64,000 bases of DNA from Candidatus Omnitrophota bacterium. Lineage in GTDB: Bacteria > Omnitrophota > Gorgyraeia > Duberdicusellales > 4484-171. The position numbers and the translations under genes were made by a program. The notes below the pieces were generated by a model. It was not told the DNA's origin and searched no databases. It worked only from the letters and a program-made list of their open reading frames with translations. Below, piece by piece: positions 3,350 to 44,978 of the stretch. The DNA lies in the NCBI GenBank assembly GCA_041652815.1, contig JBAZGN010000002.1:366261-430260 (forward strand), read 5' to 3'. Numbering within the stretch: position 1 is the first letter of the stretch; the number at the start of each line of letters is the position of its first letter.

Positions 3350-3443
3350 CTATCAGCCATCAGTCGTCAGCTCTCAGCCCCCCCTAAGGGGCGCCCGTAA
3401 AGGGTGGCTGATAGCTGAAAGCTGACAGCTGATAACTGAAACA

Positions 3444-4565
3444 ATGAGTACACAAAAAAGAGACTACTACGAAATCTTAGGCGTTAAAAAAACTGCTTCT
3501 GTTGAGGATATAAAACGGGCATATCGGCAGCTTGTTATGCAATATCATCCTGATAGAGTTGCTCCCGAAAAAAAGAAGGAAGCTGAAGAAAAGTTTAAAG
3601 AACTTTCCGAGGCTTACGCGGTCTTAAGTGACCCCAGTAAAAAGCAGCTTTATGACCAGTATGGCCACGCCGGTGTTGATTCGCGTTATTCTACTGATGA
3701 TATTTTTAAGGGAGCTGATTTCTCAGATATTTTTAGAGGCCGTCAGGGTGCAGGACAAGGAGATTTTGGCAGTATTTTTGAAGAATTTTTTTCTGACCTT
3801 GGCTTTGATGTTTTTGGGGCATCCAGCCGTCAGGGACAGGGCCGCAGGCGCCATGGCGAAGATGTCCAGTTAGAAATGTCGGTGGCGCTTGAAGAGGCTG
3901 CTTTCGGAGCAGAGAAGGAAATTTCTTTCTATCACTACGAAAATTGTTCGCAGTGTAACGGAAGCGGTGTCCAGCCTGGTTCAAAAAAAGAAACTTGTTC
4001 AACGTGCCGCGGCAGAGGGGTAGTTTCCAGCAGAATGGGGCCTTTAAGTTTTTCGCAAACTTGCCCTGATTGTCAAGGAGAAGGGGCAACGTTTAAAAAT
4101 CGCTGTTCAAAATGTTCAGGCCAGGGCAGAATAAAGGTTAAAAAACAAGTCAAAGTAACAATACCGCAGGGTGTTGATGATGGTTCCGTGCTTCGCTTAA
4201 AAGGTGAAGGAAATTTCGCCGGTGCCGGATACGGTGATTTGTACCTGCATATAGTAGTAAAACCGCATATTCTTTTCCAGAGGCAAGGCGATGATGTAAG
4301 ATGCAAGGTAAAAATAAACGTCTTTAAGGCCATGCTTGGCGCAGAGATTGAGGTGCCGACTTTATCGGGGAATGTTAAGATGAATATTCCCACCGGCACT
4401 CAACCAAACGCAGTTTTCAGGCTCAAGGGGAAAGGAATAGCTAATTTACGTACAAAAAGATTGGGCGATGAGCTGGTTGAGGTTGAAATAGAAATACCAA
4501 AAAGGGTATCCGCAAACGAGAGAAACGTTTTACTTGAAATAGCAAAAGAGCGCGGTGAAATCTGA
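3444..4565 (+). CDS. dnaJ: Chaperone DnaJ
   Basis: J domain (HPD), G/F-rich region, four CxxCxGxG zinc-finger repeats. Confidence 0.95.
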   Translation: MSTQKRDYYEILGVKKTASVEDIKRAYRQLVMQYHPDRVAPEKKKEAEEKFKELSEAYAVLSDPSKKQLYDQYGHAGVDSRYSTDDIFKGADFSDIFRGRQGAGQGDFGSIFEEFFSDLGFDVFGASSRQGQGRRRHGEDVQLEMSVALEEAAFGAEKEISFYHYENCSQCNGSGVQPGSKKETCSTCRGRGVVSSRMGPLSFSQTCPDCQGEGATFKNRCSKCSGQGRIKVKKQVKVTIPQGVDDGSVLRLKGEGNFAGAGYGDLYLHIVVKPHILFQRQGDDVRCKVKINVFKAMLGAEIEVPTLSGNVKMNIPTGTQPNAVFRLKGKGIANLRTKRLGDELVEVEIEIPKRVSANERNVLLEIAKERGEI

Positions 4566-4690
4566 TCGCGAATATTCGCGAATTTAAACCTTGATAGTTT
4601 GATTAAGGTATAAACGCGAATACACGCGAATGGAAAACAAATGTAAACAAAACTATTCGCGACCATTCGCGTTGGATTCGCGAGAATTTG
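4566..4690. repeat. Hairpin element built from ttcgcgaat/attcgcgaa words
   Basis: Includes the perfect palindrome cgcgaatattcgcg. Related elements at 6270-6488 and 10722-10808. Confidence 0.8.
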
Positions 4691-4747
4691 TGTTTAGAAA
4701 CTTGCAACTTATAGCTTTGTGTATATAATATCAGGGAGGTTTTTGTT

Positions 4748-5073: not shown

Positions 5074-6294
5074 ATGGCAGATATAATAAGGCCCTTCCGG
5101 GCTACACACTACAATCCTTCTTTTTTCAAAAATCTTTCTGCGTTTACTTGCCCGCCGTATGATGTTATAAGCAAAAAACAGCTTTCTTTGTTAAAAAGAA
5201 AATCTCCTTATAATTTTTCAAATATTCTTATTGCAACTAATAACGACTACAAAGAAATAGGCGAGAGGTTACGCAGCTGGATTGATAAACGGATATTGGT
5301 AGACGACCCGGCAGAGAGTATTTTCCTTTATGAACAGAGATTTAGAATCGGAACCGAGAAATATAAACGCTTCGGATTCCTTTCACTTTTGAAAATGAAT
5401 CAAAAAGGAGCAATTTTCCCTCACGAATATACTTTAAGCGCTCCGAAGGAAGACCGCAAAAAAGTAATAGAGGAAGTTGAGGCTAATTTAAGCCCGATAT
5501 TTGTGATAGCGCCGAAAAAGATTAACTATTTTCATGCGCTGCACAATCGGTATTGCACCAAAAAACCGTTCATGAGATTTAAAGATTTAGACGCGAATGA
5601 AAATCTGGTTTGGAAAATAACCGATAAGGATACGATAAAAAAAATATGTTCACAGGCAAACGGTAAAAATCTTGTGATAGCTGATGGGCACCACCGCTTT
5701 GAAGTAGCCTCCGGCTACTACAAGAGAAACAAAAGGCGTTTTAAAAACCTAAATTATATAATGAGTTACATAACAGACGCGCAGCGCGGGCTTGTAATAC
5801 TACCTACCCATAGAGTAATTTCAGTGCCGGATTTTGATGGTGCGCTTGCCACGCTTAAGCAATATTTTGATATAAAAGAAGTAAAAAACGATAATGTTCT
5901 TACAGGCCATCTTGGAAAAGAAAAAAAATTTTCCTTCGGTGTTTATAGACGGAGTAAATTCTATTTTCTGAAGTTGAAGAATGAAACTATCCTTGATAAG
6001 CTTTTCCCGGCGTCTCCCTATAAGAAACTTAATACGTATCTATTGCACCAGTTTGTTCTACCTATGCTTAAAACGGACGGTAGTATCCAATATACGCACG
6101 ACATAAAAGAAGCCGAAAAGCTGGCAGGCCACGATAAAACCGCTTTTATCTTAAAGCCGGTTAGTCTATCGGCAGTATTTGACATAGCCAATCGTGGCTA
6201 CCGCCTGCCTCAGAAATCAACATATTTTTATCCCAAAGTTTACAGCGGAATAGCCATACGAAGGTTTGCTAACGCGAATATACGCGAATTTTAA
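5074..6294 (+). CDS. DUF1015-like protein
   Basis: N-terminal M..I.PFRA.HYNP pattern resembles DUF1015. The last codons (ANANIREF) lie in the cgcgaat repeat. Confidence 0.45.
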   Translation: MADIIRPFRATHYNPSFFKNLSAFTCPPYDVISKKQLSLLKRKSPYNFSNILIATNNDYKEIGERLRSWIDKRILVDDPAESIFLYEQRFRIGTEKYKRFGFLSLLKMNQKGAIFPHEYTLSAPKEDRKKVIEEVEANLSPIFVIAPKKINYFHALHNRYCTKKPFMRFKDLDANENLVWKITDKDTIKKICSQANGKNLVIADGHHRFEVASGYYKRNKRRFKNLNYIMSYITDAQRGLVILPTHRVISVPDFDGALATLKQYFDIKEVKNDNVLTGHLGKEKKFSFGVYRRSKFYFLKLKNETILDKLFPASPYKKLNTYLLHQFVLPMLKTDGSIQYTHDIKEAEKLAGHDKTAFILKPVSLSAVFDIANRGYRLPQKSTYFYPKVYSGIAIRRFANANIREF

Positions 6295-9773: not shown

Positions 9774-10720
9774 TTTTTCTGTTAATAATCGTATTTATCC
9801 TTGAAGAAATACTTCTCTTAAAAAGATTTCTGAATAAAAATTTTAGAAATAAAGAGCAGCTGTTGGTTAAAATAGATGCGTTGGATAAAGAACTGAGCCC
9901 TATAAAAAAGAATATAGATGCCTTAGAAAAACAAATGTCTGAGCATTTCTTTTTCTATGACCTGATGCGTAAACTTTCACCTTTTCTTAACAAAAAAGGC
10001 CTCTTTAAGGTTTTTTCTGAAGAAATAAAATATCTCGGCGAAGTGGAAGCCGTAGAATTCAGCCGCCCGGAGAACGAAAAAAAATATTTGCAATTTGTGT
10101 TTGATGATGAAGGAAGTAGCTTATATGTAAAAACTACATCGAAAAAAATTATCGAGCATCAGGATGTTTTAAGGAAGCTCCTTGAGCTTTGTACAGAGAG
10201 GATAAACCTTTATGACAGATTCCAACAGCTATCTATATATGATGCTTTAACCGAAACCTATAACCGGCGTTATTTTGTAATACGATTTATCGAAGAGTTC
10301 GAGCGTGCCAAAAAGTTTTCCTTAAAACTATCGTTTCTCATGATTGATATTGATAATTTTAAAAAGATAAACGATACTTACGGCCATTTAGTGGGCGATG
10401 CTGTTTTAAAAGAGATAGCGAAGATTATAAAGCAAAACATAAGAGAAATAGATTCTTTAGCCAGATTCGGGGGCGAGGAGTTTTCGTTAATTTTACCTGA
10501 GACGGATAAGATGTCCGCAATAGTAGTTGGGGAAAGAATACGAAGCAAAATTTCCGAGAGAATAATAAAGGCTTTTGATGAAACGCTAAGTGTTACGATA
10601 AGCACCGGAGTGGGAAGTTTTCCGCAGAATACTTTGTATTCGGATGTTTTGATGGAAATTGCCGATAAGGCGCTTTATCAGGCAAAAATTTCCGGCAGAA
10701 ACCGGGTGTGTTGGTTTTGA
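9755..10720 (+). CDS. GGDEF diguanylate cyclase
   Basis: RFGGEEF motif and coiled-coil N-terminus. Overlaps the upstream paralog. Confidence 0.8.
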   Translation: MFYLAVIFLLIIVFILEEILLLKRFLNKNFRNKEQLLVKIDALDKELSPIKKNIDALEKQMSEHFFFYDLMRKLSPFLNKKGLFKVFSEEIKYLGEVEAVEFSRPENEKKYLQFVFDDEGSSLYVKTTSKKIIEHQDVLRKLLELCTERINLYDRFQQLSIYDALTETYNRRYFVIRFIEEFERAKKFSLKLSFLMIDIDNFKKINDTYGHLVGDAVLKEIAKIIKQNIREIDSLARFGGEEFSLILPETDKMSAIVVGERIRSKISERIIKAFDETLSVTISTGVGSFPQNTLYSDVLMEIADKALYQAKISGRNRVCWF

Positions 10721-10721
10721 T

Positions 10722-10808
10722 AAACGCGAATTTCCACGAATTTGGAACGAATTAACACGAATAAATTCGTGGTAATTCGTCTTGTATCCGTGGTAATTCG
10801 TGTCTAGC
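10722..10808. repeat. Hairpin element built from cacgaatt/aattcgtg words
   Basis: Four cgaat words on the left arm, three attcg words on the right. Confidence 0.75.
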
Positions 10809-10848
10809 ATTGCAATTAAAAATTTTCCTGCTATAATTCTACTTCATT

Positions 10849-18190: not shown

Positions 18191-18745
18191 ATGAAAGCAT
18201 CAGGGTTGAGGAAAGGTTCGGTTATTAATGATAAGGGTGAACTTTGTATAGTTGTGGATATGGACCATAGAACCCCGGGCAATTACCGGGCGTGCTATCA
18301 GGTTTATTTAAAGAACCTAAAGGACGGCCGCGTTGTAAAGCAGCGTTACAATCCCGATGATGAAGTTGAAGAGGTAAGGCTTGAGGCTCAAAAGGCGCAA
18401 TACTTGTATCATGATAATAGCGGATTCCATTTTATGGATATGGAAACTTACGATACAATTATATTAAACGAAGAAATTGTAGGTGATGCCAAGAATTACA
18501 TTAAGGAAAACTCAGAAGTAACATTCTTATGCCACAACAAGAAAGCTGTTTCGCTAGATTTACCGCCGAGAGTTGACCTTCGTGTGGTGGAGGCGCCGAT
18601 AGGCTTAAGAGGAGATACAGAAGGCACAGCCAGAAAACAGATTACTCTTGAAACCGGTTTTAAGCTCAATGCCCCGCTTTTTATCAAGGAAGGAGACATT
18701 GTGCGTATAGACACGGCAACTGGCGAATACGTAGGGAGAGCTTGA
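18191..18745 (+). CDS. efp: Elongation factor P
   Basis: EF-P length and KPGKG-region architecture. Confidence 0.88.
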   Translation: MKASGLRKGSVINDKGELCIVVDMDHRTPGNYRACYQVYLKNLKDGRVVKQRYNPDDEVEEVRLEAQKAQYLYHDNSGFHFMDMETYDTIILNEEIVGDAKNYIKENSEVTFLCHNKKAVSLDLPPRVDLRVVEAPIGLRGDTEGTARKQITLETGFKLNAPLFIKEGDIVRIDTATGEYVGRA

Positions 18746-18747
18746 TG

Positions 18748-18848
18748 AAGGTTACGAATGTTACGAAAGTTACGCAGGTTACGAAGGTTACAATAAACCA
18801 CGAGGTTTTAAATGTAACTTTCGTAACTTCCCGTAACCTTCGTAACCT
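18748..18848. repeat. Hairpin element built from gttacgaa/ttcgtaac words
   Basis: Related copy at 41617-41764. Confidence 0.8.
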
Positions 18849-18870
18849 AAAGTTGATATAGCTATAACAA

Positions 18871-28225: not shown

Positions 28226-28296
28226 TAGAAAACAGCGATGCCATAAAAAAGCGCCTCTTTTTCTTATACCTAGAGCTTATTATTACGCAAAAAATA

Positions 28297-28324
28297 TTGA
28301 CAAATTCATCAATAAGAGTAAAAT
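28297..28324 (+). promoter_or_regulatory. Sigma70-like promoter of the hydrogenase operon (TTGACA, 16-nt spacer, TAAAAT), followed by a ~340-nt structured leader
   Basis: Consensus hexamers read directly from the sequence. Confidence 0.5.
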
Positions 28325-28663
28325 TTTTCTTTAATTGATACGTATGATTTAGAATATTTCCCGAAAAGCGCCTAATTCCAAAAAATTGGAGGACCAAATT
28401 AACCCATTTTTGGCGCAAAAAGCTTGAAATGGGTTATTTTTATTCTTCTTAGCCTATATGGCGAAGAAGAATAATCCTTCGAAGCCCTACCGGCGACTAA
28501 AAAAGTGGAGGGCGAAGAAGGATATATTTAGGTGTTTGGCACTTCGACTTCGCTCAGTGTCGATGGTGAGCGTAATCGAACCATTGGCTTCGAAAAATGA
28601 ACTGAATGCCCGCGCTCCGCCTTTGGCGTTTGGCCGCGGGGAATAATAAGGTATTCCATAAAC

Positions 28664-33374: not shown

Positions 33375-33545
33375 TTAGTATTTTGGTAAGGAAGTCACAT
33401 CGGTTGCGGCAATTGTTGCGGTTGCACAACCAGCATCGTAACACGTAGCATGTAGCAGGTAACACGTCAAGGAAACAAGAATCAAAAGAAGACGTGCTAC
33501 TTGATACGTGTGACGTGATACATAATCCATACGAGCCGCGCAACC
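33375..33545. repeat. Hairpin element with gtaacacgt/acgtgctacttgatac words plus ggttgcacaacc palindrome
   Basis: Paralogous to 15876-15990. Confidence 0.65.
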
Positions 33546-34375: not shown

Positions 34376-34376
34376 A

Positions 34377-34667
34377 ATGAACCCAGCCCTTCCACATACA
34401 TATTATGTTTATCTATTGTTGTCAGATAAGGGCGGCCATATATACATTGGTTGTACGGCTAATTTGGAAAGAAGAATTAACGAGCATGAAGCAGGAAAAG
34501 TGTTTTCTGCAAAAAGATATCTTCCGATGAGCTTAGTTTATTACGAAACATATATTTCAAGAGTGGATGCGTTTAATCGTGAAAAATCACTTAAACAATA
34601 TGGTAGTGCTTTAGCAAAGTTGAAATTACGTTTGAAAGATACCTTGCAAGGAGGAAGGGCTGGGTGA
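34377..34667 (+). CDS. GIY-YIG nuclease-domain protein (YhbQ/UPF0213-like)
   Basis: YYVYLL...G.IYIGCT.NL.RR..EH motif; 96 aa. The ORF is bounded by 13-bp perfect inverted repeats. Confidence 0.8.
   Translation: MNPALPHTYYVYLLLSDKGGHIYIGCTANLERRINEHEAGKVFSAKRYLPMSLVYYETYISRVDAFNREKSLKQYGSALAKLKLRLKDTLQGGRAG
34381..34665 (+). mobile_element. 285-bp mini-element carrying the GIY-YIG ORF, bounded by perfect 13-bp terminal inverted repeats acccagcccttcc / ggaagggctgggt
   Basis: The two repeats are exact reverse complements at 34381-34393 and 34653-34665. The right end supplies AAGGAGG plus GTG for the downstream gene. Confidence 0.6.
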
Positions 34668-34996
34668 ATAGTTTATTATTAACTCCACCAATTGCATTTT
34701 TAATAATTCTATCTGTTTCTATCGCGGTTAGTTTTTCCTTTTCAAAGCTTAGCTTTAAGGGAAAGAAGAAAAGCGAGGAAAGCGGGGATTCCTACGCCTG
34801 CGGCGAAGATTTGTATGACCACATGGCCCAGCCTGACTACAGCAATTTTTTCCCTTTTGCTTTTTTCTTTACGCTTGCCCACGTAGGAACATTGATAATA
34901 GCAACTGTCCCGATAGAAACTATTAAATCATTTGATATGGCGGTTGTTTACATTATAGGTATTATCGTCGGGCTTTCGATTTTATTTAGAAAATAA
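34664..34996 (+). CDS. NuoA-like small membrane subunit (tentative)
   Basis: 3-TM protein with a YACGED motif reminiscent of NuoA/ND3 YECG. GTG start inside the element's right repeat. Confidence 0.45.
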   Translation: MNSLLLTPPIAFLIILSVSIAVSFSFSKLSFKGKKKSEESGDSYACGEDLYDHMAQPDYSNFFPFAFFFTLAHVGTLIIATVPIETIKSFDMAVVYIIGIIVGLSILFRK

Positions 34997-35001
34997 TTAT
35001 T

Positions 35002-35153
35002 AATAACCAAGTTCCAAGATACAATAACCAAATAATGACCAATAATCAAATTCCAATAACCAAACAAAAAAGGACAAAACTGTTTGGTCATTGGTTATTG
35101 GATATTGGAATTTATTTGGAGCTTGTATCTTGGTTATTGGTTATTTCGTAAGC
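35002..35153. repeat. ~150-bp hairpin element built from aataaccaa/ttggttatt words, copy 1 of 3
   Basis: Near-identical to 39451-39603 and 40335-40468. Confidence 0.85.
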
Positions 35154-35173
35154 AGGTAGTTAAATAAAAAACA

Positions 35174-35638
35174 ATGGGAGTGCTTAAAAAAGTTGTAACT
35201 TGGGCGCGCATAAAATCACCTTGGATTTTACATTTTAATACCGGTGCTTGTAACGCCTGCGACATAGAAATTATCGCAACGCTTACCCCGCGTTACGACC
35301 TTGAACGATTTGGCGTGCAACTTAAAGGCACCCCGCGCCACGCAGATGTTCTTATTTGTTCAGGCCCGGTAACAAAACAGGTGCACGATAGGTTACGCAG
35401 AATTTACGAACAGATGTGCGAACCTAAATTCGTAATTGCAGTAGGCACTTGCGCTTGTTCGGGCGGCGTGTTTAAAGGCTGTTATAATGTTGATTCCGGA
35501 ATCGATATGGTTTTGCCTGTAGCAGCATATGTTCCGGGGTGCCCTGCAAGCCCCAAAGCTATAATTGATGGAGTGGTTAAGCTGTTGCAGAGCCTTGAAG
35601 AAAAAGAAACCAGAAACCAGAGCACAGAAACCAGATGA
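35174..35638 (+). CDS. [NiFe] hydrogenase small subunit (NuoB/HycG/EchC-like)
   Basis: CNACDIE, GTCACSGG and GCPASP cysteine motifs. The C-terminal tail KETRNQSTETR is encoded by repeat words. Confidence 0.88.
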   Translation: MGVLKKVVTWARIKSPWILHFNTGACNACDIEIIATLTPRYDLERFGVQLKGTPRHADVLICSGPVTKQVHDRLRRIYEQMCEPKFVIAVGTCACSGGVFKGCYNVDSGIDMVLPVAAYVPGCPASPKAIIDGVVKLLQSLEEKETRNQSTETR

Positions 35639-35746
35639 TAGAAAATAAAAATAAAATGGTAAAGTTTATTCCGTCATATCCTTATACTCTGTACTCTAGT
35701 TTCCGGTTTCTGGTTTCTCTGATAAACCGAGCGAAGCGAGGTTAAC

Positions 35747-36202
35747 ATGAATAGCGAAGAAAAAATACAACAAGAACTAATTGCTAAATTCAGCTACCTT
35801 GACGGTAAAGTCAAAGTGCAACGCGCTCGGCGCATTTTTGCGGAAGTAGAACAGGAAAAGTTTTTTGAAGTTTTTGACTATATTGTAAGAGACGCCGGTT
35901 TTTCTCATCTTTGCGCAATTACTGGCTTGGATGAAGGCCCCGGCACTCTGGGTGTTATTTACCATCTTTCAGGCAATGCCGGTGTTATCATTAACCTGAA
36001 AACATCGATTCAGAAAGAAAATCCCATACTCCAAACGGTAACACCTTATTTTCCGGGAGCGGAAATTTATGAAAGAGAGTTAACAGATTTATTAGGCGTT
36101 GAAATAGATACTTTATCTCCGGGGCCAAGATATCCCTTGCCGGATGATTGGCCGCATGACGAATTTCCTTTGCGTAAAGACTGGAAACCGCGGGATAAAT
36201 AA
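35747..36202 (+). CDS. NuoC/HycE-N/EchD-like subunit
   Basis: 30-kDa-subunit-like; position before the large subunit. Confidence 0.7.
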   Translation: MNSEEKIQQELIAKFSYLDGKVKVQRARRIFAEVEQEKFFEVFDYIVRDAGFSHLCAITGLDEGPGTLGVIYHLSGNAGVIINLKTSIQKENPILQTVTPYFPGAEIYERELTDLLGVEIDTLSPGPRYPLPDDWPHDEFPLRKDWKPRDK

Positions 36203-36204
36203 TA

Positions 36205-36298
36205 GAAGCGGATATCCGCGGATCTAAACGCGGATATCCGCCAGCGAATTACCGTGCGTCTATCCGCGTAGATATCCGCGGTAATCCGCTTCTATAAT
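36205..36298. repeat. Hairpin element built from gcggatatccgc words
   Basis: Outer stem tagaagcggat/atccgcttcta. Confidence 0.7.
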
Positions 36299-36311
36299 AT
36301 AGGAGTATAAA

Positions 36312-37538
36312 ATGCGTAAACAAAATAAATTTAGAATTCCCATAGGACCGCAGCACCCTGCGCTTAAAGAGCCAGCTGGTTTTAGCGTGGCTTTAAAGGG
36401 AGAAAAAATAAAGGGCGTTAGTGTCCGGCTTGGTTATAATCATCGCGGCATAGAGAAAGCCTGTGAACAGCGGACTTATGTCCAGGATGTATATCTTATC
36501 GAGCGTATCTGCGGCATATGCTCGCATACACATTCAACCTGTTTTGTGCAGGGAGTTGAGGAAATTGCTGGTTTGGCAGTTCCTAAAAGGGCGCTTTATA
36601 TCCGCACGATAATCGGAGAGCTTGAGCGTATCCACAGCCATTATTTATGGCTAGGGGTAGCCGGCCACGAGATAGGTTTTGATACTCTGCTTATGTATTC
36701 CTGGCGTGACAGGGAAGTAGTTATGGATGTGTTAGCTATGCTTACCGGAAATCGTGTAAATTACGGCATAAATTGTATCGGCGGAGTCCGGCGCGATATA
36801 GACGAAGCGCAGGTAGGCCAAGTCCTTAAAGCTATAGATATTCTTGAAGAAAGGACTAAGTATTATATTGAAGTGGCTACCGAAGAAACCACAATGATAA
36901 AAAGGCTTTCCGGTGTTGGAGTATTAAGCCGCGAAGATGCTTTACGTCTCGGTGCAGTCGGCCCGACTGCCCGAGCTTCAGGCTTGGATTATGATATAAG
37001 GCGCATTGACCCTTATGCAGCATACGCGGAGCTTGATTTTGATGTAATAACAGATACTCACTGTGATGTCTACGGCCGGACAGTCGTGCGGATGAAAGAG
37101 CTAATGCAATCCTGCCGGATAATTCGCCAGGCGCTTAAGAATATGCCGCAAGGCCCGATTTCAATAAAGGCTCCGCGTAAAATCGCCGCCGGCGAAGTTA
37201 TCAGCAGATACGAAGCCCCGCGCGGAGAAGATGTGCATTATATTAAATCAAACGGCACAGAACAGCCGGAAAGAGTAAAAGTTCGAGCGCCCACGCTTGC
37301 CAATATGAAAGCGGTTAAGCATATGCTTCGTGACAGGTATTTGGCTGATATGCCTATTGTTATCGCTGCGATAGACCCTTGTTTTTCCTGCACTGACAGA
37401 ACTATTGCACTTGATAACCGCGATACCAAAAAGAAAGAAATCATCGAGTGGAAAACTTTGCGCAATTACGGTATAGAGTGGTACAAGGGGCGGGGAATAG
37501 ACTTTACAGATTTAAATAGAAGGTTAGCTTCTATTTAA
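36312..37538 (+). CDS. Group 4 [NiFe] hydrogenase large (catalytic) subunit
   Basis: Both Ni-Fe ligation motifs present: RICGICSHTH (L1) and DPCFSCTDR (L2). Complex I NuoD lacks these. Confidence 0.9.
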   Translation: MRKQNKFRIPIGPQHPALKEPAGFSVALKGEKIKGVSVRLGYNHRGIEKACEQRTYVQDVYLIERICGICSHTHSTCFVQGVEEIAGLAVPKRALYIRTIIGELERIHSHYLWLGVAGHEIGFDTLLMYSWRDREVVMDVLAMLTGNRVNYGINCIGGVRRDIDEAQVGQVLKAIDILEERTKYYIEVATEETTMIKRLSGVGVLSREDALRLGAVGPTARASGLDYDIRRIDPYAAYAELDFDVITDTHCDVYGRTVVRMKELMQSCRIIRQALKNMPQGPISIKAPRKIAAGEVISRYEAPRGEDVHYIKSNGTEQPERVKVRAPTLANMKAVKHMLRDRYLADMPIVIAAIDPCFSCTDRTIALDNRDTKKKEIIEWKTLRNYGIEWYKGRGIDFTDLNRRLASI

Positions 37539-37655
37539 ATAACTATCAGTTATTGGCTTTGGCTAAAAGGAAAAGCCAAACCACGGCCTTCTGGCCAGCA
37601 GTTTTCTGCTTTCAGCTGAAGACTGACGACTGAAAGCTGATAGCTATATTTAATT

Positions 37656-38597
37656 ATGTTTTACCAACTTTTTTCTTTATTAATATTTCCCGGGCTTTTA
37701 TTTGTGAGCGTATCTTCGCTTTTTGCCGAATTTCTGGACAGAAGAATTTACGCCAGGCTGCAAAATAGAATTGGTCCGCCCTGGTTTCAGCCTTTTGCTG
37801 ATTTTATCAAGCTGCTTGCCAAAGAAGAAATTATTCCCAGAGACGCAAACCCGAGAATGTTTAAAATGATGCCGATATTTGCCTTTGCCTCGGCAGTTTG
37901 CGCTTTTCTTTACATACCGCTTTATAAAACGCATTCGCTTTTCTATTTTGATGCGGATTTAATTGTTGTGCTTTATTTTTTAACTATTCCCACTCTCGCT
38001 TTTTTTATCGGCGGGTGGTATTCCACTTCTCTTTATGCAAGAATCGGCTCGGTGCGTTCCCTTACCCAGTTATTTGCCTATGAAGTTCCTTTATTTATCG
38101 GCATACTTTCCGCGGCAGTGCTTGCGAATACCTGGTCAATTTCCGAGTTGAGTATTTTTTATGGCCGGCACCCGTTTTACTGGCTTTTTAACCTGATTGG
38201 TTTTGGTGTTTCACTGATTGCTCTTTTGGCAAAGCTTGAGAAGGGGCCGTTTGATATTCCCGAAGCAGAAACCGAAATTGTTGCAGGCAGTTTTACCGAA
38301 TACAGCGGCCGCCACCTGGCATTTCTGCGCCTTACTTTAAACGTGGAAATGGTTGTCGGAAGCGCACTGCTCGCTGCGGTATTTTTACCTTTCGGCTATG
38401 AATTCGGCCCGGTTATCGGTTTTCTGATTTTTCTCTGTAAAATAATCTTCATAATTGCGTTACTTTCCTTGTCCAGGACTGTTTTTGCCAGAATGCGTAT
38501 TGACCAGATGATAAATTTTTGCTGGAAGTATCTGGTTCCTTTTGCATTCTTTCAGCTTCTACTAAACCTTATTTTAAAAGGAGTGATACTACGATGA
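37656..38597 (+). CDS. NuoH/HycD/EchB-like membrane subunit
   Basis: 8-TM NuoH family. Confidence 0.8.
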   Translation: MFYQLFSLLIFPGLLFVSVSSLFAEFLDRRIYARLQNRIGPPWFQPFADFIKLLAKEEIIPRDANPRMFKMMPIFAFASAVCAFLYIPLYKTHSLFYFDADLIVVLYFLTIPTLAFFIGGWYSTSLYARIGSVRSLTQLFAYEVPLFIGILSAAVLANTWSISELSIFYGRHPFYWLFNLIGFGVSLIALLAKLEKGPFDIPEAETEIVAGSFTEYSGRHLAFLRLTLNVEMVVGSALLAAVFLPFGYEFGPVIGFLIFLCKIIFIIALLSLSRTVFARMRIDQMINFCWKYLVPFAFFQLLLNLILKGVILR

Positions 38598-38968
38598 GGC
38601 CGGGGAAAATGATAAGGCAGGTCCTTAAATCGATATTTAAAAAGCCTGTCACCGTAATGTATCCCTATGAAAAGCTGGAAATGCCTGATAAGTTTAGAGG
38701 CAAGCTGAAATATTATCCCGAAAGATGCATCGGCTGCCGGCTTTGCATAAAAGATTGCCCAACCGGAGCAATCGATATAAAAAAAGTCGGCGAAAACCAA
38801 TTCGAAGCGTTGATTGATTTAGGAAGGTGTATTTATTGCGCCCAGTGCGTTGATAGCTGCCCAAAAAAAGCTTTGGAAGCTACAAAAGATGTAGAGCTTG
38901 CCCAATTGGATGAGAGCAAGCTAAAAATAATATTTCATGCAAAGCCTTATAAACCAGCTGACAAATAA
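38594..38968 (+). CDS. NuoI/HycF-like 2x[4Fe-4S] ferredoxin subunit
   Basis: CIGCRLCIKDCP and CIYCAQCVDSCP. Internal ATG chosen (the ORF opens at 38519). Confidence 0.8.
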   Translation: MRPGKMIRQVLKSIFKKPVTVMYPYEKLEMPDKFRGKLKYYPERCIGCRLCIKDCPTGAIDIKKVGENQFEALIDLGRCIYCAQCVDSCPKKALEATKDVELAQLDESKLKIIFHAKPYKPADK

Positions 38969-39437
38969 ATTAGCCAATGCCAAGCGTATTGTTGTCCTTG
39001 GAGTTGGCTCGGAGCTTCGCAGTGACGATGCCGCAGGCCTTATCGCTGCAAGAACTATCCAAAAAAAAGTTTCCAAATCTAAAAAACCACAAGTTGCTGT
39101 GCTTTTAGGGGAAACCGCCCCGGAAAATTTTACCGGAGAAATCAAGAAGTTAAAGCCAACGCATCTTATAATCATTGATGCGGCAGATATTTCTAAAAAA
39201 AGTGGAGATGTTGTGTTGTTTAACCCGGAGGATATAAAAGGAATTTCTTTTTGCACTCACCAGCTGCCGATGAGCATTATGATTGATTACCTGAAAAATT
39301 ATATTAACTGCGACGTTTCAATCATTGGCATCCAGCCTAAGAGCTTGAGAGTGGGAAATAACCTTTCCAAAGAAGTTAAGATTGCGGTAAAATGTGTGAG
39401 CGATGCAGTTTTGGGCGCTATATATACAAGTAAGTAG
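38937..39437 (+). CDS. Hydrogenase maturation endopeptidase (HycI/HybD family)
   Basis: VLGVGSELRSDDAAG motif; ~160 aa. Confidence 0.8.
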   Translation: MQSLINQLTNKLANAKRIVVLGVGSELRSDDAAGLIAARTIQKKVSKSKKPQVAVLLGETAPENFTGEIKKLKPTHLIIIDAADISKKSGDVVLFNPEDIKGISFCTHQLPMSIMIDYLKNYINCDVSIIGIQPKSLRVGNNLSKEVKIAVKCVSDAVLGAIYTSK

Positions 39438-39450
39438 AAAGATAGTGGAG

Positions 39451-39603
39451 GAATAACCAAGCTCCAAGATACAATAACCAAACAATGACCAATAATCAAA
39501 TTCCAATAACCAAACAAAAAAGGACAAAACTGTTTGGTCATTGGTTATTGGATATTGGAATTTGTTTGTATCTTGTACCTTGGTTATTGGTTATTTCGTA
39601 AGC
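39451..39603. repeat. aataaccaa/ttggttatt hairpin element, copy 2
   Basis: See copy 1. Confidence 0.85.
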
Positions 39604-39638
39604 ATCTTTGTTAATCTGTGTAACAAAAGGAGGAAACA

Positions 39639-40253
39639 ATGTTCAATTTCATCATAAAAGGCGGGCCGATTATGATTCCTATTCTTCTTGGCTCGCTTTT
39701 TGGCTTTGCCATAGCCATTGAAAGATTTTTTGTTTTTAGAAAAACCCGTCTTGATACTTTTCAGTTTGTTGAAGAAGTCTTTAAAGCTTTAAAGATTAAA
39801 GATACAAGAAAAGCTTTAGAGCTTTGTGAGCGCAGCCGCCATCCGCTGGCAAGTATTTTCAAAATCGGCATCGAGCGCCGCGGGCTACCTTTAGACCGGC
39901 TTGAGAAAATTCTGGAGCAGGCAGGAAACAACCACGTTTATAAACTTGAAAAAAGGCTGGGTGCGCTTTTATCCATAGTCAGCATTGAGCCATTGCTTGG
40001 ATTTCTTGGAACAATTACCGGATTAATCCACGCTTTTATGACCTGGGAAAAAGCCGGCGCAAGTGTTACTGTGAGTTCGCTTGCCTCTGGTATCTACGAA
40101 GCAATGATTACAACCGCAGCCGGCTTAACTATCGCCATACCGCTTTATCTTTGCTATAATTATTTTATAAGCCGCATAAAAATTATCTCTAACGACCTTA
40201 CAAACCATAGTATCCAACTGCTCGAGGTAATCGCGGAAACTAAAGATAAATGA
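39639..40253 (+). CDS. MotA/TolQ/ExbB proton-channel family protein
   Basis: 3-TM protein with the conserved ExbB/TolQ C-terminal region. Confidence 0.8.
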   Translation: MFNFIIKGGPIMIPILLGSLFGFAIAIERFFVFRKTRLDTFQFVEEVFKALKIKDTRKALELCERSRHPLASIFKIGIERRGLPLDRLEKILEQAGNNHVYKLEKRLGALLSIVSIEPLLGFLGTITGLIHAFMTWEKAGASVTVSSLASGIYEAMITTAAGLTIAIPLYLCYNYFISRIKIISNDLTNHSIQLLEVIAETKDK

Positions 40254-40334
40254 AGTTATGTTGCGAAATTTCGGTTATGGTAACAGTAACGAAACTCCTA
40301 TCAGTTATGTCTAACGGCAACGCCTATGAAAATA

Positions 40335-40468
40335 AATAACCAAGCTCCAAGAAACAATAACCAAATAATATCCAATAACCAAATATCAATAACCAAACAT
40401 TTCTGTTTGGTTATTGGTCATTGGAACTTGGAATTTGTTTGGAACTTGTATCTTGGTTATTGGTTATT
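40335..40468. repeat. aataaccaa/ttggttatt hairpin element, copy 3
   Basis: See copy 1. Confidence 0.8.
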
Positions 40469-40597
40469 TTTATCTTAACGTAAACGTAACCCTAAGACGA
40501 AATTGGCATCGTAACCATAGCCATAACCGAATTCTTAATAGGCTTGTAGATAAAATTAGGAGAAATTTAAGTGAAAATCTCTGGAAGGCGTGAATAT

Positions 40598-40993: not shown

Positions 40994-41100
40994 TGAATAG
41001 ATGGCAGATGACAGTTTGGCAGATGGCAGATAAAATCTATCTGCATAACTGCTATCTGCCATCTGCTATCCGCTTGAGTTTTTAACCATATGAGGTGATG

Positions 41101-41616
41101 TGTATGATAAGAAAAATTTCCCTTATTTTAACATTTTCGTTTTTACTCTTAGGCCTTTTGAAAGTTAATGGAGAAGGAGGAATATCTATGAAGCTAACCA
41201 GCCCGGATTTTAAAAATAATGAATATCTGCCGAAAAAATTTACCTGTGACGGTAAGGCTATAAACCCCAGCCTTAATATCGAAAGTATTCCTGATAACGC
41301 AAAGAGCCTTGCGTTGATTGTTGACGATCCTGACGCACCAGCCGGAACATTCATCCATTGGATAGTTTTTGATATTCCGGTTACAAATAAAATAGCAGAA
41401 AACACTGCCCCCGGTAAGCAAGGCATTACTAGTTCGCGCACTAAAGAGTATGTCAGCCCCTGCCCGCCTTCCGGCACCCACCGTTATTTCTTCAAAATAT
41501 ATGCTTTGGATACTATGCTGAATTTAAAAGAAGGCATTACCAAGCAAGAGCTTGAGGCGGCGATGAAGGGGCATATCGTGGCGCAAGCGGAGATGATAGG
41601 GTTGTATAAAAGATAG
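41101..41616 (+). CDS. YbhB/YbcL-family PEBP (Raf-kinase-inhibitor-like) protein
   Basis: DDPDAP.GTF.HW motif and signal peptide. Confidence 0.8.
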   Translation, partial: CMIRKISLILTFSFLLLGLLKVNGEGGISMKLTSPDFKNNEYLPKKFTCDGKAINPSLNIESIPDNAKSLALIVDDPDAPAGTFIHWIVFDIPVTNKIAENTAPGKQGITSSRTKEYVSPCPPSGTHRYFFKIYALDTMLNLKEGITKQELEAAMKGHIVAQAEMIGLYKR

Positions 41617-41764
41617 GTTACGAAGGTTACGGATGTTACGAGGGTTACGAAAGTTACCCTTAAACCGCGTGTTTTATTGTAACCTCCGTAACTTAATTCT
41701 TCCGCCTCCGGCGGAAGAATTAACGTAACCAGACTGCCGTAGGCAGGCGCGTAACCTTCGTAAC
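41617..41764. repeat. Hairpin element built from gttacgaa/ttcgtaac words
   Basis: Related to 18748-18848. Confidence 0.8.
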
Positions 41765-41766
41765 AA

Positions 41767-41800
41767 AAAAAAGAGGAGCCAAAAAAGCTCCTCTTTTTTA
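41767..41800. terminator. Bidirectional terminator hairpin
   Basis: aaaaaagaggagccaaaaaagctcctctttttt. Confidence 0.7.
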
Positions 41801-41907: not shown

Positions 41908-42096
41908 TTGAATAGATTATCCAGAGACAATATCAAAACAGACGAGGATTTTATGACTAACGCTAAAGGCGTATTCGCCGCCGGAGATATGCATAAAGGC
42001 CAATCGCTAATTGTTTGGGCGATTGCAGAGGGAAGACAAGCGGCGTATAATGTTGATAGCTACTTAATGGGAAAGAGTAGTTTGCCTGCGATTTAG
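41908..42096 (+). pseudogene. 3' fragment of a gltD-type (glutamate synthase small subunit/FAD oxidoreductase) gene, last ~55 codons only
   Basis: VFAAGDMHKGQSLIVWAIAEGRQAA..D.YLMG is the conserved GltD C-terminus with no upstream body. Confidence 0.7.
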
Positions 42097-42185: not shown

Positions 42186-42247
42186 TAGGCAATAAACGAT
42201 TTGGAGTGGTGAACAAATCTATTAGATAATTTTAGATTAAAAATATA

Positions 42248-42398
42248 GGCATCTGCAGAAAGGTATTTAATGTGTCGTTGATCCAGCGACAGTTAACGCA
42301 AAGTTTCGCTTTAGGCCATGTTTACTGCAATGATTTTGAGTTAATGATAAACTGATGATCTGAGTTTTCGGCAAAAGGTAGAATACTCTGCAGATGCC
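42248..42398 (+). ncRNA. Candidate retron msr-msd ncRNA flanked by inverted repeats a1 (ggcatctgcag) and a2 (ctgcagatgcc); a2 overlaps the RT start
   Basis: 11-bp perfect a1/a2 inverted repeat at 42248-42258 and 42388-42398. Internal stem-loops; immediately 5' of a retron-type RT. Confidence 0.6.
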
Positions 42399-43905
42399 AA
42401 TTAATATCGACCTATCATTAAATAGAACGGAAGAAGAGCTAAGGGAATCATTTTTTTTACTGAAAACTTGCGATGATCTAGCATTACTTTTAGAAATACC
42501 TGCCTCAAAATTAACATATTATCTTTACGGCTTGCCTGAAGACAAAAAATACTATAATTTTACAATTCCGAAAAAATCTGGAGAGCAAAGAGTTATTTGT
42601 GCTCCGATAAATGGATTAAAAATTATTCAGCAGAAAATAAGCCAAGTTCTGTTTTGTATTTATAGACCAAAATCATCTGTGAATGGTTTCGTTTCAAGCA
42701 GGAATATTGTTACCAATGCAAAAGTACATTGCAATAAAAAGTTTGTTCTAAATATTGATTTAGAAAACTTTTTTCCATCGATACATTTTGGCCGGATACA
42801 AGGAATGTTTATGGCTTGGCCTTACAACTGCAATCATGAAGTAGCTAAAACATTAGCGCAAATCTGTTGTTGTAACAAAAAACTACCTCAGGGGGCACCG
42901 ACCTCGCCCATTATTTCTAATATGATTTGTAGTAAGATGGATTCAGAACTTCAGGGGTTGGCTAATAATTTCCGGTGTAGGTATACACGATACTCAGATG
43001 ACCTTACTTTTTCCACTTCTTCAGCTAAATTCCCAATAGAATTAGCAAAATATACGTTATTGTCGGGCAACAAAACACTAGTTGTGGGGGGCCATTTAAA
43101 AGAAATTATCGAAAAAAATAATGGGTTTCGAATTAATTACCGTAAAATAAGATTGCAAGAATTCAATCACAGGCAATCTGTAACAGGCATTATTACGAAT
43201 AAATTCCCCAATGTAAAAAGAAAATATGTCAGGCAAATAAGAGCAATGTTGCATGCTTGGGAAAAATTTGGACTAAAAGATGCAGAGCGTGAGTTTCGTC
43301 AAAAATTTGCTAAATGCCGCTGTCCCGCAAAGCAGTTACCATCTTTTCTTGAAGTGCTAAAAGGTAAAATAGGATTTTTAGGCATGGTAAGAGGTAAAGA
43401 TGATCCAATTTATTATTTTTTCAATTATAAATATAAAAATCTTTTGCGCCCCACATATTTAGATAAAAAAGGAGAAATAATGCAAAATAGATACGACGCT
43501 TTCATTAGTTATGCTAGTGAAGACAAAAAAAATTTTGTAATAAATTTAGCTAAAGAACTCATTAGAGAAGGTTTTGACATTTGGTTTGATGAAACTGCGA
43601 TAAAAGTTGGGGATAGTATCAGACGAAAGATAGATGAAGGTCTGACAAGATCAAGGTTCGCTATTGTTATATTTTCGGAAGCTTTTTTCAAAAAGAATTG
43701 GCCACAACATGAATTGTCTGGCTTAGTATCTCTAGAAATGAATGATGGCAGAAAACGTATACTGCCTATTTGGTACAAGATCGATAAGGAATATATAATA
43801 TCAATAAGCCCTCCATTGGCCGATATCCATGCATTAACCTTTCCACAGCAGACAATCGGGCAGATGGTGGATGAATTATCTAAAAAATTAAAAGACAAAA
43901 GCTAA
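42394..43905 (+). CDS. Retron-type reverse transcriptase fused to a C-terminal TIR domain
   Basis: Retron RT hallmarks: Y.F.IPKKSGEQRVI.AP, NAKVH (NAxxH), FFPSI, LPQGAPTSP, YTRYSDDLTFS (YxDD), SVTGIITN (VTG). C-terminus (aa ~370-503) is TIR-like: YDAFISYASEDK...IWFDE...GDSI...SRFAIVIFSE.F..K.W...EL. Confidence 0.85.
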   Translation: MPINIDLSLNRTEEELRESFFLLKTCDDLALLLEIPASKLTYYLYGLPEDKKYYNFTIPKKSGEQRVICAPINGLKIIQQKISQVLFCIYRPKSSVNGFVSSRNIVTNAKVHCNKKFVLNIDLENFFPSIHFGRIQGMFMAWPYNCNHEVAKTLAQICCCNKKLPQGAPTSPIISNMICSKMDSELQGLANNFRCRYTRYSDDLTFSTSSAKFPIELAKYTLLSGNKTLVVGGHLKEIIEKNNGFRINYRKIRLQEFNHRQSVTGIITNKFPNVKRKYVRQIRAMLHAWEKFGLKDAEREFRQKFAKCRCPAKQLPSFLEVLKGKIGFLGMVRGKDDPIYYFFNYKYKNLLRPTYLDKKGEIMQNRYDAFISYASEDKKNFVINLAKELIREGFDIWFDETAIKVGDSIRRKIDEGLTRSRFAIVIFSEAFFKKNWPQHELSGLVSLEMNDGRKRILPIWYKIDKEYIISISPPLADIHALTFPQQTIGQMVDELSKKLKDKS

Positions 43906-44978
43906 TGAATAGTACATTATTAGATTTTAGTGAAGCATTAAAGCAAGCTGTAAATATTGGTGGAAAGAAACAGCTGTTTTTGGGCAACGGATTTAGCATA
44001 GCTTGTTATCCAGGCTTTGAATACGGCACATTATATGAACAAGCTAAAAATAGCGGGCTCTCTAAACATTTAGATGAGCTTTTAAAAAGATATGGTAACA
44101 ATTTTGAAGATGTATTGAAATACCTTGATGAAGGAATGTTTTTGGCGGAGCATTACTATTTAAAAAAAAGTAAAAAAACTAATAGAGACATGGCTCAAGA
44201 TTACAAGGAACTTAAAGAGGCGTTAATAACGACAATAAGTGATAATCACCCTGATTATCCTAGCAGGATATCTAAAAATAAGTTTGAAAGTTGTATAAAA
44301 TTTTTAAGAAATTTTGATGCGGCTTTTACTGTGAATTATGATTTGCTTTTATATTGGGCTTCTTTGCATATTGACGAAAGTAAGGGCGAAGAGTTTCCAT
44401 TCTCTGATGGCTTCGGAAGAGAAGATGATGCTGCGAATCCCGATTGTTCTTTTTCCTATTCGAGCATGAGCTCGAAGCCATATTTATTTTTTCTACACGG
44501 CGCCTTGCATCTTTATACAAAAGACGGACATGTTTGGAAGCGTGTTTGGAATACTACAGGCATCCCAATCATTAAATGCGTTAGAGAAGCTTTTAGCAAA
44601 AAGAGTTACCCATTAGTGGTGACTGAAGGCAAATCTCTTGATAAACTTAAGAAGATTGAAAGTAGTAGCTATTTATCTCAAGCATATAGAAAATTCAAAA
44701 ATATCCAGGGGCATCTTTTTATTTTTGGACATTCGCTTAGTGAACAAGATAATCATATACTTAATGCAATAATTTGCTCAGAAAAATTTAAACTTACGCA
44801 TCTTTGGATAGGAATACATGGAGATTCAAATTCTGCTCATAACAAAAATATAATTGCGAAAGCATCTTTCTTAAGAATGAAAAGAGAAGAGCTCATTCCA
44901 AAAAAACTTAAATCTAAAGGCGAAGGTGAATTAAATATTGGATTTTTCGATAGTGCCTCAGCGCATATTTGGGATTAA
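43905..44978 (+). CDS. SIR2-family (SIR2_2/DHS-like NAD-binding) protein, probable effector
   Basis: LFLGNGFS (GAGxS-like), TVNYDLLL (TTNYDxLLE-like), LHGALH (KLHG-like) and IFGHSLSEQD (GYSl.D) motifs. 1-nt start/stop overlap with the RT-TIR gene. Confidence 0.7.
   Translation: MNSTLLDFSEALKQAVNIGGKKQLFLGNGFSIACYPGFEYGTLYEQAKNSGLSKHLDELLKRYGNNFEDVLKYLDEGMFLAEHYYLKKSKKTNRDMAQDYKELKEALITTISDNHPDYPSRISKNKFESCIKFLRNFDAAFTVNYDLLLYWASLHIDESKGEEFPFSDGFGREDDAANPDCSFSYSSMSSKPYLFFLHGALHLYTKDGHVWKRVWNTTGIPIIKCVREAFSKKSYPLVVTEGKSLDKLKKIESSSYLSQAYRKFKNIQGHLFIFGHSLSEQDNHILNAIICSEKFKLTHLWIGIHGDSNSAHNKNIIAKASFLRMKREELIPKKLKSKGEGELNIGFFDSASAHIWD

Follow-up and report, generated by a model that had tools for sequence, protein, structure and literature searches.

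Intervening sequences (IVSs) of bacterial rRNA genes are bordered by complementary sequences, may hold an open reading frame (ORF) for the protein S23p and are excised by RNase III (PMC4990558). They are sporadically distributed, horizontal transfer has been inferred for them, and they have long been suspected to be mobile and are regarded as selfish (PMC4990558). In the Coxiella IVS, two or three tandem GACAGAT heptamers and one degenerate unit lie upstream of S23p, the number of heptamers varies by strain, and the RNase III site is located at the first repeat (PMC4990558). ORFs of the S23p family, PF05635, are also present in rRNA insertions of candidate phyla radiation (CPR) bacteria (PMC11270868). 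For more than 30 years there has been no settled account of where rRNA IVSs come from, what S23p does or how bacterial heptamer repeats arose. Here, we analysed a 64,000-nt stretch of DNA from a Candidatus Omnitrophota bacterium (assembly GCA_041652815.1, contig JBAZGN010000002.1, positions 366,261 to 430,260; hereafter the window), in which three copies of one hairpin element lie between genes of a hydrogenase cluster. We consider it probable that these copies are ORF-less derivatives of an IVS-like element with a PF05635 gene, resembling miniature inverted-repeat transposable elements, or MITEs, that they were copied as a unit, and that their stem is related to the action of RNase III or exonucleases. 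The locus presents the same type of element in mRNA spacers, in full-length and miniature forms, and its sites are filled in some and empty in others of a set of near-identical genomes, which makes both its mobility and its function directly testable.

Two further groups of repeats are relevant for comparison. Correia elements have been summarised as hairpin-forming, MITE-like repeats that are able to affect transcription (PMC4853749). Heptamer repeats are over-represented, without explanation, in Xanthomonas, Nostoc (GGGGAYT) and Beggiatoaceae/Bacteroidetes (TAACTGA) (PMC4692102, PMC4679880); the Xanthomonas (GGGAATC) heptamers form 70-75 convergent inverted pairs (PMC4692102), and horizontal spread of such repeats has been suspected (PMC4679880). 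As for the protein, PF05635 resembles Avd, the accessory protein of diversity-generating retroelements (DGRs) (PMC10053308).

Three copies of one hairpin element lie between genes of a hydrogenase cluster

According to Pfam, the cluster consists of an Mrp-like antiporter and a group-4 [NiFe] hydrogenase, followed by hycI, exbB, exbD and a PEBP gene. The three copies of the element, A (35002-35154), B (39452-39604) and C (40335-40469), are all located between protein-coding genes (NuoA-like/HydS, HycI/ExbB and ExbB/ExbD, respectively) and none of them in an rRNA helix. The hairpin of copy A spans 35002-35145 of the + strand, with the NuoA-like gene ending ahead of it (stop at 34996) and the hydrogenase small subunit starting behind it (35174), and is composed of a left arm of CAA-ending heptamers (35002-35066), an apex at about 35067-35080 (AAAAAAGGACAAAA) and a right arm of TTG-starting heptamers (35081-35145). 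Copy B (hairpin 39452-39595, + strand) has the same apex and is flanked by hycI (stop at 39437) and by the Shine-Dalgarno sequence of exbB (start 39639), while copy C (40335-40469, + strand), with 135 nt and a 4-nt apex, lies between exbB and exbD.

A sequence-only reading of the window had placed three near-identical copies at these positions, and the repeat search, the alignment, the terminus count and the family profile all agree on the three places. The 31-nt left terminus AATAACCAAGYTCCAAGAWACAATAACCAAA occurs three times in the window (up to three mismatches allowed) versus 0.00 times expected from 100 shuffles, and an nhmmer profile of the family recovers exactly copies A, B and C, with no degenerate fourth copy and with E-values of about 1e-36 on the + strand versus about 1e-22 on the − strand. 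By repeat search and alignment, the 153 nt of A and B, to which a non-repetitive apex and tail belong, have 96% identity. The identity above 90% that had been claimed for all copies therefore holds for this pair but not for copy C, which matches A with 88% in the left arm (68 nt) and 91% in the right arm (67 nt). Likewise, the central core aaaaaggacaaaactgtttggtcattgg is present in A and B but not in C, whose apex, ACATTTCTG, is different and 10 nt shorter.

All three copies are predicted to fold, on either strand, into long imperfect hairpins of 135-149 nt in which the complementary terminal sequences form a long stem (dG −51 to −63 kcal/mol, z −7.9 to −11.7). A search of these copies with Rfam covariance models gave only miRNA-like matches at chance level (E 0.3-0.95), far under the gathering scores.

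The arms are built of degenerate tandem heptamers

Both arms consist of 8-9 degenerate tandem heptamers (AAnnnCC on the left, TTGGnnn on the right). The CAA triplets of the left arm and the TTG triplets of the right arm are spaced by 7, 7, 7, 11, 7, 7 and 7 nt in both arms of all copies, and the identity at lag 7 is 0.55-0.68, a level equalled by 0-3 of 2000 shuffles. In each heptad four positions are constant (CCAA/TTGG) and three are variable, so that helices of 8-11 bp alternate with 3x3 internal loops. Owing to this construction, both strands read as CCAA words from the 5' end, an apex, and TTGG words up to the 3' end.

Full-length members of the family enclose a PF05635 gene

Loci collected for comparison are denoted by L and a number. 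Among the metagenome stretches that hold the left terminus, two, L125 and L130, contain the same type of arms around a gene: the left arm runs directly into an ATG, and the right arm follows the stop codon (TAA) of an ORF of 113-115 aa. This ORF matches PF05635 (E = 2e-18), TIGR02436 (E = 2.7e-24) and the structure PDB 2rld (E = 3.6e-13). Full-length members in general have inverted heptamer arms around a PF05635/TIGR02436 gene of 113-126 aa; the family is annotated as 'four helix bundle protein' or as S23p, the protein of 23S rRNA intervening sequences, and has no known catalytic function. Every PF05635 gene in the loci examined is flanked by inverted heptamer arms, in nine of nine independent contexts (L020, L029, L096, L125, L130, L132, L137/138, L145/146b and L146a). 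All nine elements are intercistronic and co-oriented with the flanking genes, for example between hisG and a TPR gene, between the E and F genes of a type II secretion system, or between the halves of transketolase.

The vocabulary of the arms tracks the protein subfamily. AACCAA arms accompany proteins at least 75% identical to the reference protein P0121, while more distant PF05635 proteins have CTAAA and AAAATCA arms; the genes with the same arms as the window copies are those of L125, L130, L020, L132, L137 and L145. The P0121 subfamily has more than 2400 homologues at E <= 1e-10, many of them on short contigs, and the best 120 homologues are all 75-100% identical and belong to Omnitrophota wherever they are named.

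The window copies derive from such elements. Copy A matches the full-length element of L125 at 63 of 67 positions in the left arm and at 57 of 66 in the right arm, so that a short form has its inverted termini in common with a longer, ORF-bearing one. Both forms also occur together on the contig behind L130, where one full-length and three ORF-less copies lie within 8 kb and one of the latter has an identical 65-nt left arm. Furthermore, A, B and a copy at the unrelated locus L105 have one short remnant in common as their apex. It is enclosed by ...CAAACAAA and CTGTTTGG..., which are the borders of the ORF in the full-length elements. Since an identical deletion junction is found at several loci, the ORF-less form itself was copied. 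The origin from an IVS-like PF05635 element goes beyond what had been read from the window alone, and so do the heptamer construction of the arms and, as described below, the nesting of copy C and the grouping of further hairpins of the window with this kind.

Orthologous junctions are filled in some relatives and empty in others

Syntenic relatives of the cluster were gathered through homologues of ExbB, which also place the organism among the Omnitrophota. Two of the relatives, L099, which comes from the same metagenome as the window, and L096, have genes that are 95% identical. In L099 and a further relative, L148, every junction measures only 1-14 nt, so that the sites of A, B and C are cleanly empty there; the outgroup L100 is also compact at these three sites. 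In L096, at least five junctions carry elements relative to L099 despite the 95% identical genes, and in the closer relative L117 the ortholog of site A is filled, with the same left boundary and a diverged apex. At every filled site, the element is placed after the stop codon and before the conserved Shine-Dalgarno sequence and start of the next gene. Orthologous sites are therefore polymorphic for presence or absence (empty in L099 and L148, filled in the window, L117 and L096), and filled and empty sites at 95% gene identity mean that the turnover of spacer elements is fast relative to the divergence of genes.

The proposal that the element is multi-copy and has spread recently is borne out by these empty sites, by the identity of A to B (96%), which is higher than that of A to its L117 ortholog (about 90%), by the copy in L105 and by the wide occurrence of the termini in 94 and 29 stretches (see below). 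Copy C had been described as sitting inside an otherwise tight exbB-exbD pair. Its insertion into the pair is supported, but the pair is tight only in the relatives (gap of 2-28 nt); in the window the spacer amounts to 317 nt and also holds an outer hairpin.

Within about 5% divergence, nearly every junction of the energy-conserving hydrogenase operon in this lineage can gain hairpins of 100-300 nt, and such gains must affect translational coupling and the processing of the operon mRNA.

The termini recur across phyla with a bias in orientation

Among GTDB representative genomes, 94 stretches contain the exact 24-nt right terminus, with up to eight stretches per metagenome-assembled genome (MAG). 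By GenBank title, 28 of these belong to Omnitrophota, 19 to Chloroflexota/Dehalococcoidia, 13 to CPR/Patescibacteria, 13 to unclassified 'bacterium', 12 to 'Planctomycetia', four to Saganbacteria/Margulisbacteria, three to Elusimicrobia (inside ORFs) and two to Gammaproteobacteria. One of the 'bacterium' MAGs is syntenic with the window, and some of the 'Planctomycetia' copies have flanks in common with Omnitrophota copies, which makes that label doubtful. In metagenomes, 29 stretches matched the left terminus; the copy in L105, which comes from another metagenome, is near-identical to those of the window and has the apex of A and B. Viral contigs gave 0 matches to the 24-nt terminus, and a phage vector is thus without evidence.

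At 64 of 98 sites the hairpin is complete, with paired AATAACCAA...TTGGTTATT termini and a median length of 134 nt. These complete hairpins have about 30-35 conserved nt at each end and a variable interior, some of them enclose other hairpins, and 62 of the 64 are intergenic. Where both neighbouring genes lie on one strand, the 24-nt end is on the 3' side (co-oriented) in 23 cases versus 5 in the opposite orientation. This bias in polarity may only reflect the need of full-length elements for host transcription of their gene.

The three Elusimicrobia stretches come from one MAG, in which three paralogous ORFs have the terminus at their 5' ends (L009 5157-5180, L073 51-74 and L074 7316-7339). 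Read in frame it encodes the hydrophobic LVSWLLVI, either an exapted arm or a coincidence repeated by paralogy, and we leave these cases, like the other matches within ORFs and the solo right arms that were looked at, as unexplained heterogeneity.

Copy C is nested in another hairpin, and the window holds many more

The 317-nt exbB-exbD spacer (40254-40570) folds as one nested hairpin of about 285 nt (dG −97 kcal/mol, z −9.2), in which copy C forms the apex of an outer hairpin of GTTAC/GTAAC words. The left arm of this outer host hairpin (40259-40334, + strand) is made of GGTTATGG/GTAAC words and its right arm (40470-40541, + strand) of CGTAAC/CCATAACC words. Copies A and B also have flanking layers. 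A 9-nt tail beyond the hairpin, TCGTAAGCA (35146-35154, + strand), is common to A, B and many copies elsewhere and begins an outer layer. On its left, copy B is bordered by GATAGTGGAGG (39441-39451, + strand), matching the ATAGCTGGAGA-type flank 5' of copies in other Omnitrophota MAGs, and on its right by the tail TCGTAAGCATCTTTGTTAATCTGTG (39596-39622, + strand), in which an outer layer of CACAGAT/ATCTGTG words has left a remnant of its right arm. The same layer surrounds copies in L010, L072, L026 and L032, and the flanks of B, left (GATAGTGGAGG) as well as right (...ATCTTTGTTAATCTGTG), recur beside copies in other genomes.

At least 12 more hairpins of the window are built of repeated short words, in ACAGA, CAGC, CGCGAAT, ACGAATT, GGTTACGAA, GCGGAT and GGCAGAT vocabularies. 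They are intergenic (1277-1382, 3348-3437, 4561-4700, 10718-10809, 18745-18870, 33440-33520, 35610-35745, 36196-36301, 37599-37654, 40999-41064 and 41615-41760), and some of them sit between cistrons of the hydrogenase operon that holds copy A. The element of A, B and C had been set apart from these hairpins as clearly multi-copy, but other vocabularies are also common to several loci, such as the CAGC words at 3339-3378 and 37615-37654. Relatives carry word hairpins of other vocabularies at the same junctions, and those of the window probably belong to the same class of elements as A, B and C.

In the hairpin between hydS and the gene for the 30-kDa subunit (35610-35745), the left arm ACCAGAAACCAGAGCACAGAAACCAGA is part of the hydS coding sequence, at its 3' end, and in L096 a different hairpin similarly adds about 13 aa to HydS; C-termini can thus recruit hairpin arms. 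Apart from lengthening real ORFs, such hairpins break assemblies and create false small ORFs (e.g., 40326-40478), artefacts that matter for the annotation of uncultured phyla.

The hairpins would process or stabilise the operon transcript

That the element might terminate or stabilise transcripts had been raised from the sequence, and the first of these roles is unlikely. A consensus scan detected no intrinsic terminator on the + strand at any copy, the stems are AT-rich, the hydrogenase operon has copy A and further word hairpins in its interior, and a separate canonical terminator at about 41768-41800, after the last word hairpin behind the PEBP gene, ends the cluster. Each of these observations rules against a role as intrinsic terminator. 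Promoter creation by the copies was not indicated either, as promoter-like matches were at the level of shuffled sequences.

By analogy with rRNA IVSs, and with other palindromic intergenic repeats, we propose a different effect. The copies would be co-transcribed with the operon and would fold in the RNA into a hairpin of about 140 nt (about 285 nt where nested), with blocks of 8-11 bp on the CCAA/TTGG cores alternating with 3x3 loops. Such a stem could serve as a substrate of RNase III, as a barrier to 3' exonucleases, or as both, in which case the polycistronic mRNA would be cut or its segments differentially stabilised while transcription would not be terminated. RNase III processing or segmental stabilisation of the mRNA is the likely effect on this analogy, and stabilisation or processing of transcripts is our best guess at a function.

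Weighing of the explanations

Several points weigh against reading the copies as mobile, ORF-less derivatives of PF05635 elements whose stem is an RNase III or exonuclease target. No window copy has a PF05635 gene and there is none elsewhere in the 64 kb, so that a partner acting in trans in this genome is an assumption; moreover, we know of no PF05635 protein with a demonstrated role in mobility. Target-site duplications (TSDs), which had been suggested as a check, were sought at A, B, C and 16 more copies and none was found, the flanks of C being inverted and not direct. The outer boundaries differ between copies and the flanking layers of A, B and C are unlike, a variation as compatible with gene conversion or recombination among hairpins as with transposition. 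At the level of RNA, the antisense strands of A and B fold 5-10 kcal/mol better than the sense strands, and over 64 copies there was no consistent difference in favour of the sense strand. Interior complementarity of the arms is 0.66 within a copy, slightly more than the 0.61 between arms of different copies (p = 0.004), a weak covariation that does not demonstrate base-by-base selection for an RNA helix, and the longest uninterrupted helices, of 9-15 bp, are below the length of classical RNase III substrates. The phylum labels of the MAGs are GenBank titles as given, and in Coxiella S23p is apparently not made (PMC4990558).

If the hairpins were instead host regulatory structures evolved in place by heptamer slippage, their likeness would come from simple-sequence composition. 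Arms made of simple tandem heptamers, which pair mainly through the constant CCAA/TTGG cores, agree with this, as do the different words at the same junction in different lineages and the intergenic position of all of them. We nevertheless hold it to be very unlikely, since the 96% identity of A and B extends over the non-repetitive apex and tail, the same apex is found at the unrelated locus L105, and the exact 24-nt terminus occurs in many genomes. Of two sister genomes with 95% gene identity, one has elements where the other has none, the empty and filled sites partly show new insertions, and a regulatory role is not favoured by operon-internal positions lacking a terminator signature. Insertion could also have been the work of a DDE or other conventional transposase acting on the terminal inverted repeats (TIRs) of a classical MITE, with PF05635 as a passenger. 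The conserved termini of about 30-35 nt, the variable interior and the short, numerous, intergenic copies are what such an element would show, and true MITEs with TIRs and TSDs do occur in these genomes (the ~355-nt L096 insertion with TTGAA, described below). A classical MITE is unlikely all the same, because the copies lack TSDs and fixed outer boundaries and because in about 0.9 Mb of loci no transposase was found between such arms, where the sole gene was PF05635, in all nine contexts.

Gene conversion or recombination between existing hairpins, as concerted evolution within the genome and without transposition, would explain the likeness of A, B and C and make the copies scars of decayed PF05635 elements. 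The variable boundaries and common flanking layers speak for it, copy A was inherited at its site in L117, and ORF deletions are known in IVSs, e.g., one of 176 bp in a Coxiella strain (PMC4990558). Its probability is low: the same deletion junction at no fewer than three unrelated loci in two genomes requires that an ORF-less unit was copied, the hairpin around copy C has another vocabulary, and the window carries elements at junctions which the outgroups L100 and L148 keep compact. Movement as single-stranded DNA, in the manner of REP/BIME or IS200/IS605-type elements with a Y1 HUH enzyme (RAYT/TnpA), or an integron attC-like site, would suit a hairpin-forming element with an orientation bias and no TSD, and gene blocks such as exbBD do switch context between relatives. 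We regard it as extremely improbable, because the AT-rich element of 135-153 nt has no GTAG/CGTC head and is no short GC-rich palindrome, its ends, (N)AATAACC and GGTTATT(T), do not fit the R''/R' sites of attC (RYYYAAC/GTTRRRY), and the genes concerned are housekeeping operon genes. Furthermore, no Y1 transposase or integrase was noticed in the loci, in a search that was not exhaustive, and the gene associated with the arms is PF05635.

Comparison with intervening sequences, MITEs and heptamer repeats

The element resembles rRNA IVSs, which hold S23p in Leptospira and Coxiella burnetii and are ORF-less in Salmonella and others, in its long terminal stem, in the PF05635 gene at the apex of the full-length form, in the existence of ORF-less hairpin forms and, with regard to Coxiella, in the tandem heptamers beside the ORF. 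Unlike IVSs, its copies are located in intercistronic spacers and not in rRNA helices, those of the window lack the PF05635 ORF, the heptamer arrays are much longer and have periodic 3x3 mismatches, and the element is multi-copy within a genome and can be nested. With MITEs and with Correia/NEMIS and ERIC-type repeats it has in common that it is short, non-coding and multi-copy, with conserved inverted termini that also belong to a longer ORF-bearing element, a variable interior, insertion polymorphism and co-transcription in operons. It departs from them in the lack of TSDs, in a partner that is not a known transposase and in arms of tandem heptamers in place of unique TIRs. As the copies are not in rRNA and neither a TSD nor a transposase partner was found, we describe the element as working like an IVS or a MITE and as a member of neither group; it is best filed as an IVS-like, PF05635-associated palindromic element in an ORF-less, MITE-like form that occupies mRNA spacers.

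Cyanobacterial short tandemly repeated repetitive (STRR) sequences, whose units are said, in work attributed to Mazel (1990), to be CCCCA(A/G)T, TTGGTCA and CAACAGT, are likewise intergenic arrays with a 7-nt period, as are the heptamers of Xanthomonas, Nostoc and Beggiatoaceae. Those arrays are mainly described as direct and consist of other words, whereas here the heptamers form inverted pairs and are degenerate in three of seven positions. In the literature searched, we did not find PF05635 genes or hairpin elements tied to STRR-type repeats. A tblastn search of plasmids with P0121 gave almost only cyanobacteria, in addition to one Bacteroidota genome. The four-helix-bundle gene of a Nostoc flagelliforme plasmid has four AATTCAA units upstream and four TTTTGAA units downstream; that of a Planktothrix plasmid is accompanied by four CCCCAAT and three CGTAAAT units, with inverted ATTTACG units downstream; and that of an Anabaena cylindrica plasmid is flanked by GTAAAAA/TTTTTAC words. 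These heptamer-flanked genes hint at a link to STRR sequences.

Two of these plasmid genes are found inside defence loci, the Anabaena cylindrica one (L151, pANACY.01, 155585-155932) between cas2 and cas1 and the Planktothrix one (L150) between DISARM drmD and BREX pglX.

Avd is a pentameric four-helix-bundle protein that binds nucleic acid and reverse transcriptase (RT), and the partner protein of the present element comes from the same fold and family neighbourhood. In contrast to DGRs, no DGR RT, template repeat or variable repeat adjoins the elements examined, and the RT of the window is a retron type XII RT-TIR and not of the DGR type. In the part of the literature that was covered, the sequence TTGGTTATTGGTTATT appears in no paper and Omnitrophota are not tied to such hairpins; nor does any paper join IVS/S23p, heptamers and ORF-less copies in operon spacers, which in view of the partial coverage is weak evidence.

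A wider proposal, which is speculative and in our estimation improbable as a whole, is that inverted heptamer arrays and a pentameric S23p/Avd-like protein constitute a distinct and widespread class of mobile elements. The heptads would bind the protein, and the hairpin would be mobile, possibly as an RNA released by RNase III and reverse-transcribed in trans. Such a class would unite IVSs, the word hairpins of Omnitrophota, CPR and Chloroflexota, and the heptamer repeats of the STRR, Xanthomonas and Bacteroidota kinds.

Other insertions and repeats in the window and its relatives

A conventional MITE is present within the same lineage as an insertion of about 355 nt in L096 (11168-11622) compared with L099 (11052-11151). 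Its ends form the terminal inverted repeat CCCAAAATTT...AAATTTGGG, and 5 bp (TTGAA) are apparently duplicated.

The context of exbB-exbD varies between relatives. In L064 (6600-6700), the PEBP gene comes straight after hycI, without exbBD, and in L147 (881-1145; 96% ExbB identity) exbB follows a GAF-ANTAR gene and the promoter-like stretch TTGACAAATTTATCAATAAGAGTAAAAT. The same stretch lies in the window (28290-28340) upstream of the whole antiporter-hydrogenase cluster.

A cassette with a GIY-YIG gene (96 aa, 34377-34667) is inserted exactly behind the ATG of the NuoA-like gene. It takes the host ATG and gives the host gene a new AGGAGG and GTG; its ends (34376-34400 and 34650-34665) carry a 12-nt inverted repeat, CCCAGCCCTTCC/GGAAGGGCTGGG. 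The cassette is not present in L099 and L100, which have a 1-nt junction there. In L096, two ORF-less miniatures of about 90 nt (5122-5211) and about 116 nt (10619-10745) have the ends of this cassette, one of the two lying at the NuoA-like junction and one just ahead of the exbD start codon.

Downstream of the cluster, a retron-like defence island (42240-44978) comprises an RT-TIR gene (42394-43905; PADLOC RT-TIR_XII, E = 3e-148) and a PDC-S21/DUF4917 gene (43905-44978). Ahead of the RT-TIR gene, a long inverted repeat, with GGCATCTGCAGA near 42247 and TCTGCAGATGCC near 42386, may represent the msr/msd ends. At the position of the island, relatives carry P-II, GS and GOGAT genes, and the window keeps a glutamate-synthase-like fragment (41908-42096). 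Further on, between 44985 and 57457, a 40-nt promoter-like repeat (TTGACCGCACCATTTTTCCACAGTAAAATACCC...) occurs six times and the hairpin repeat AACCTAAATCCCACCGCGTAGGTGGG three times, upstream of or between small genes.

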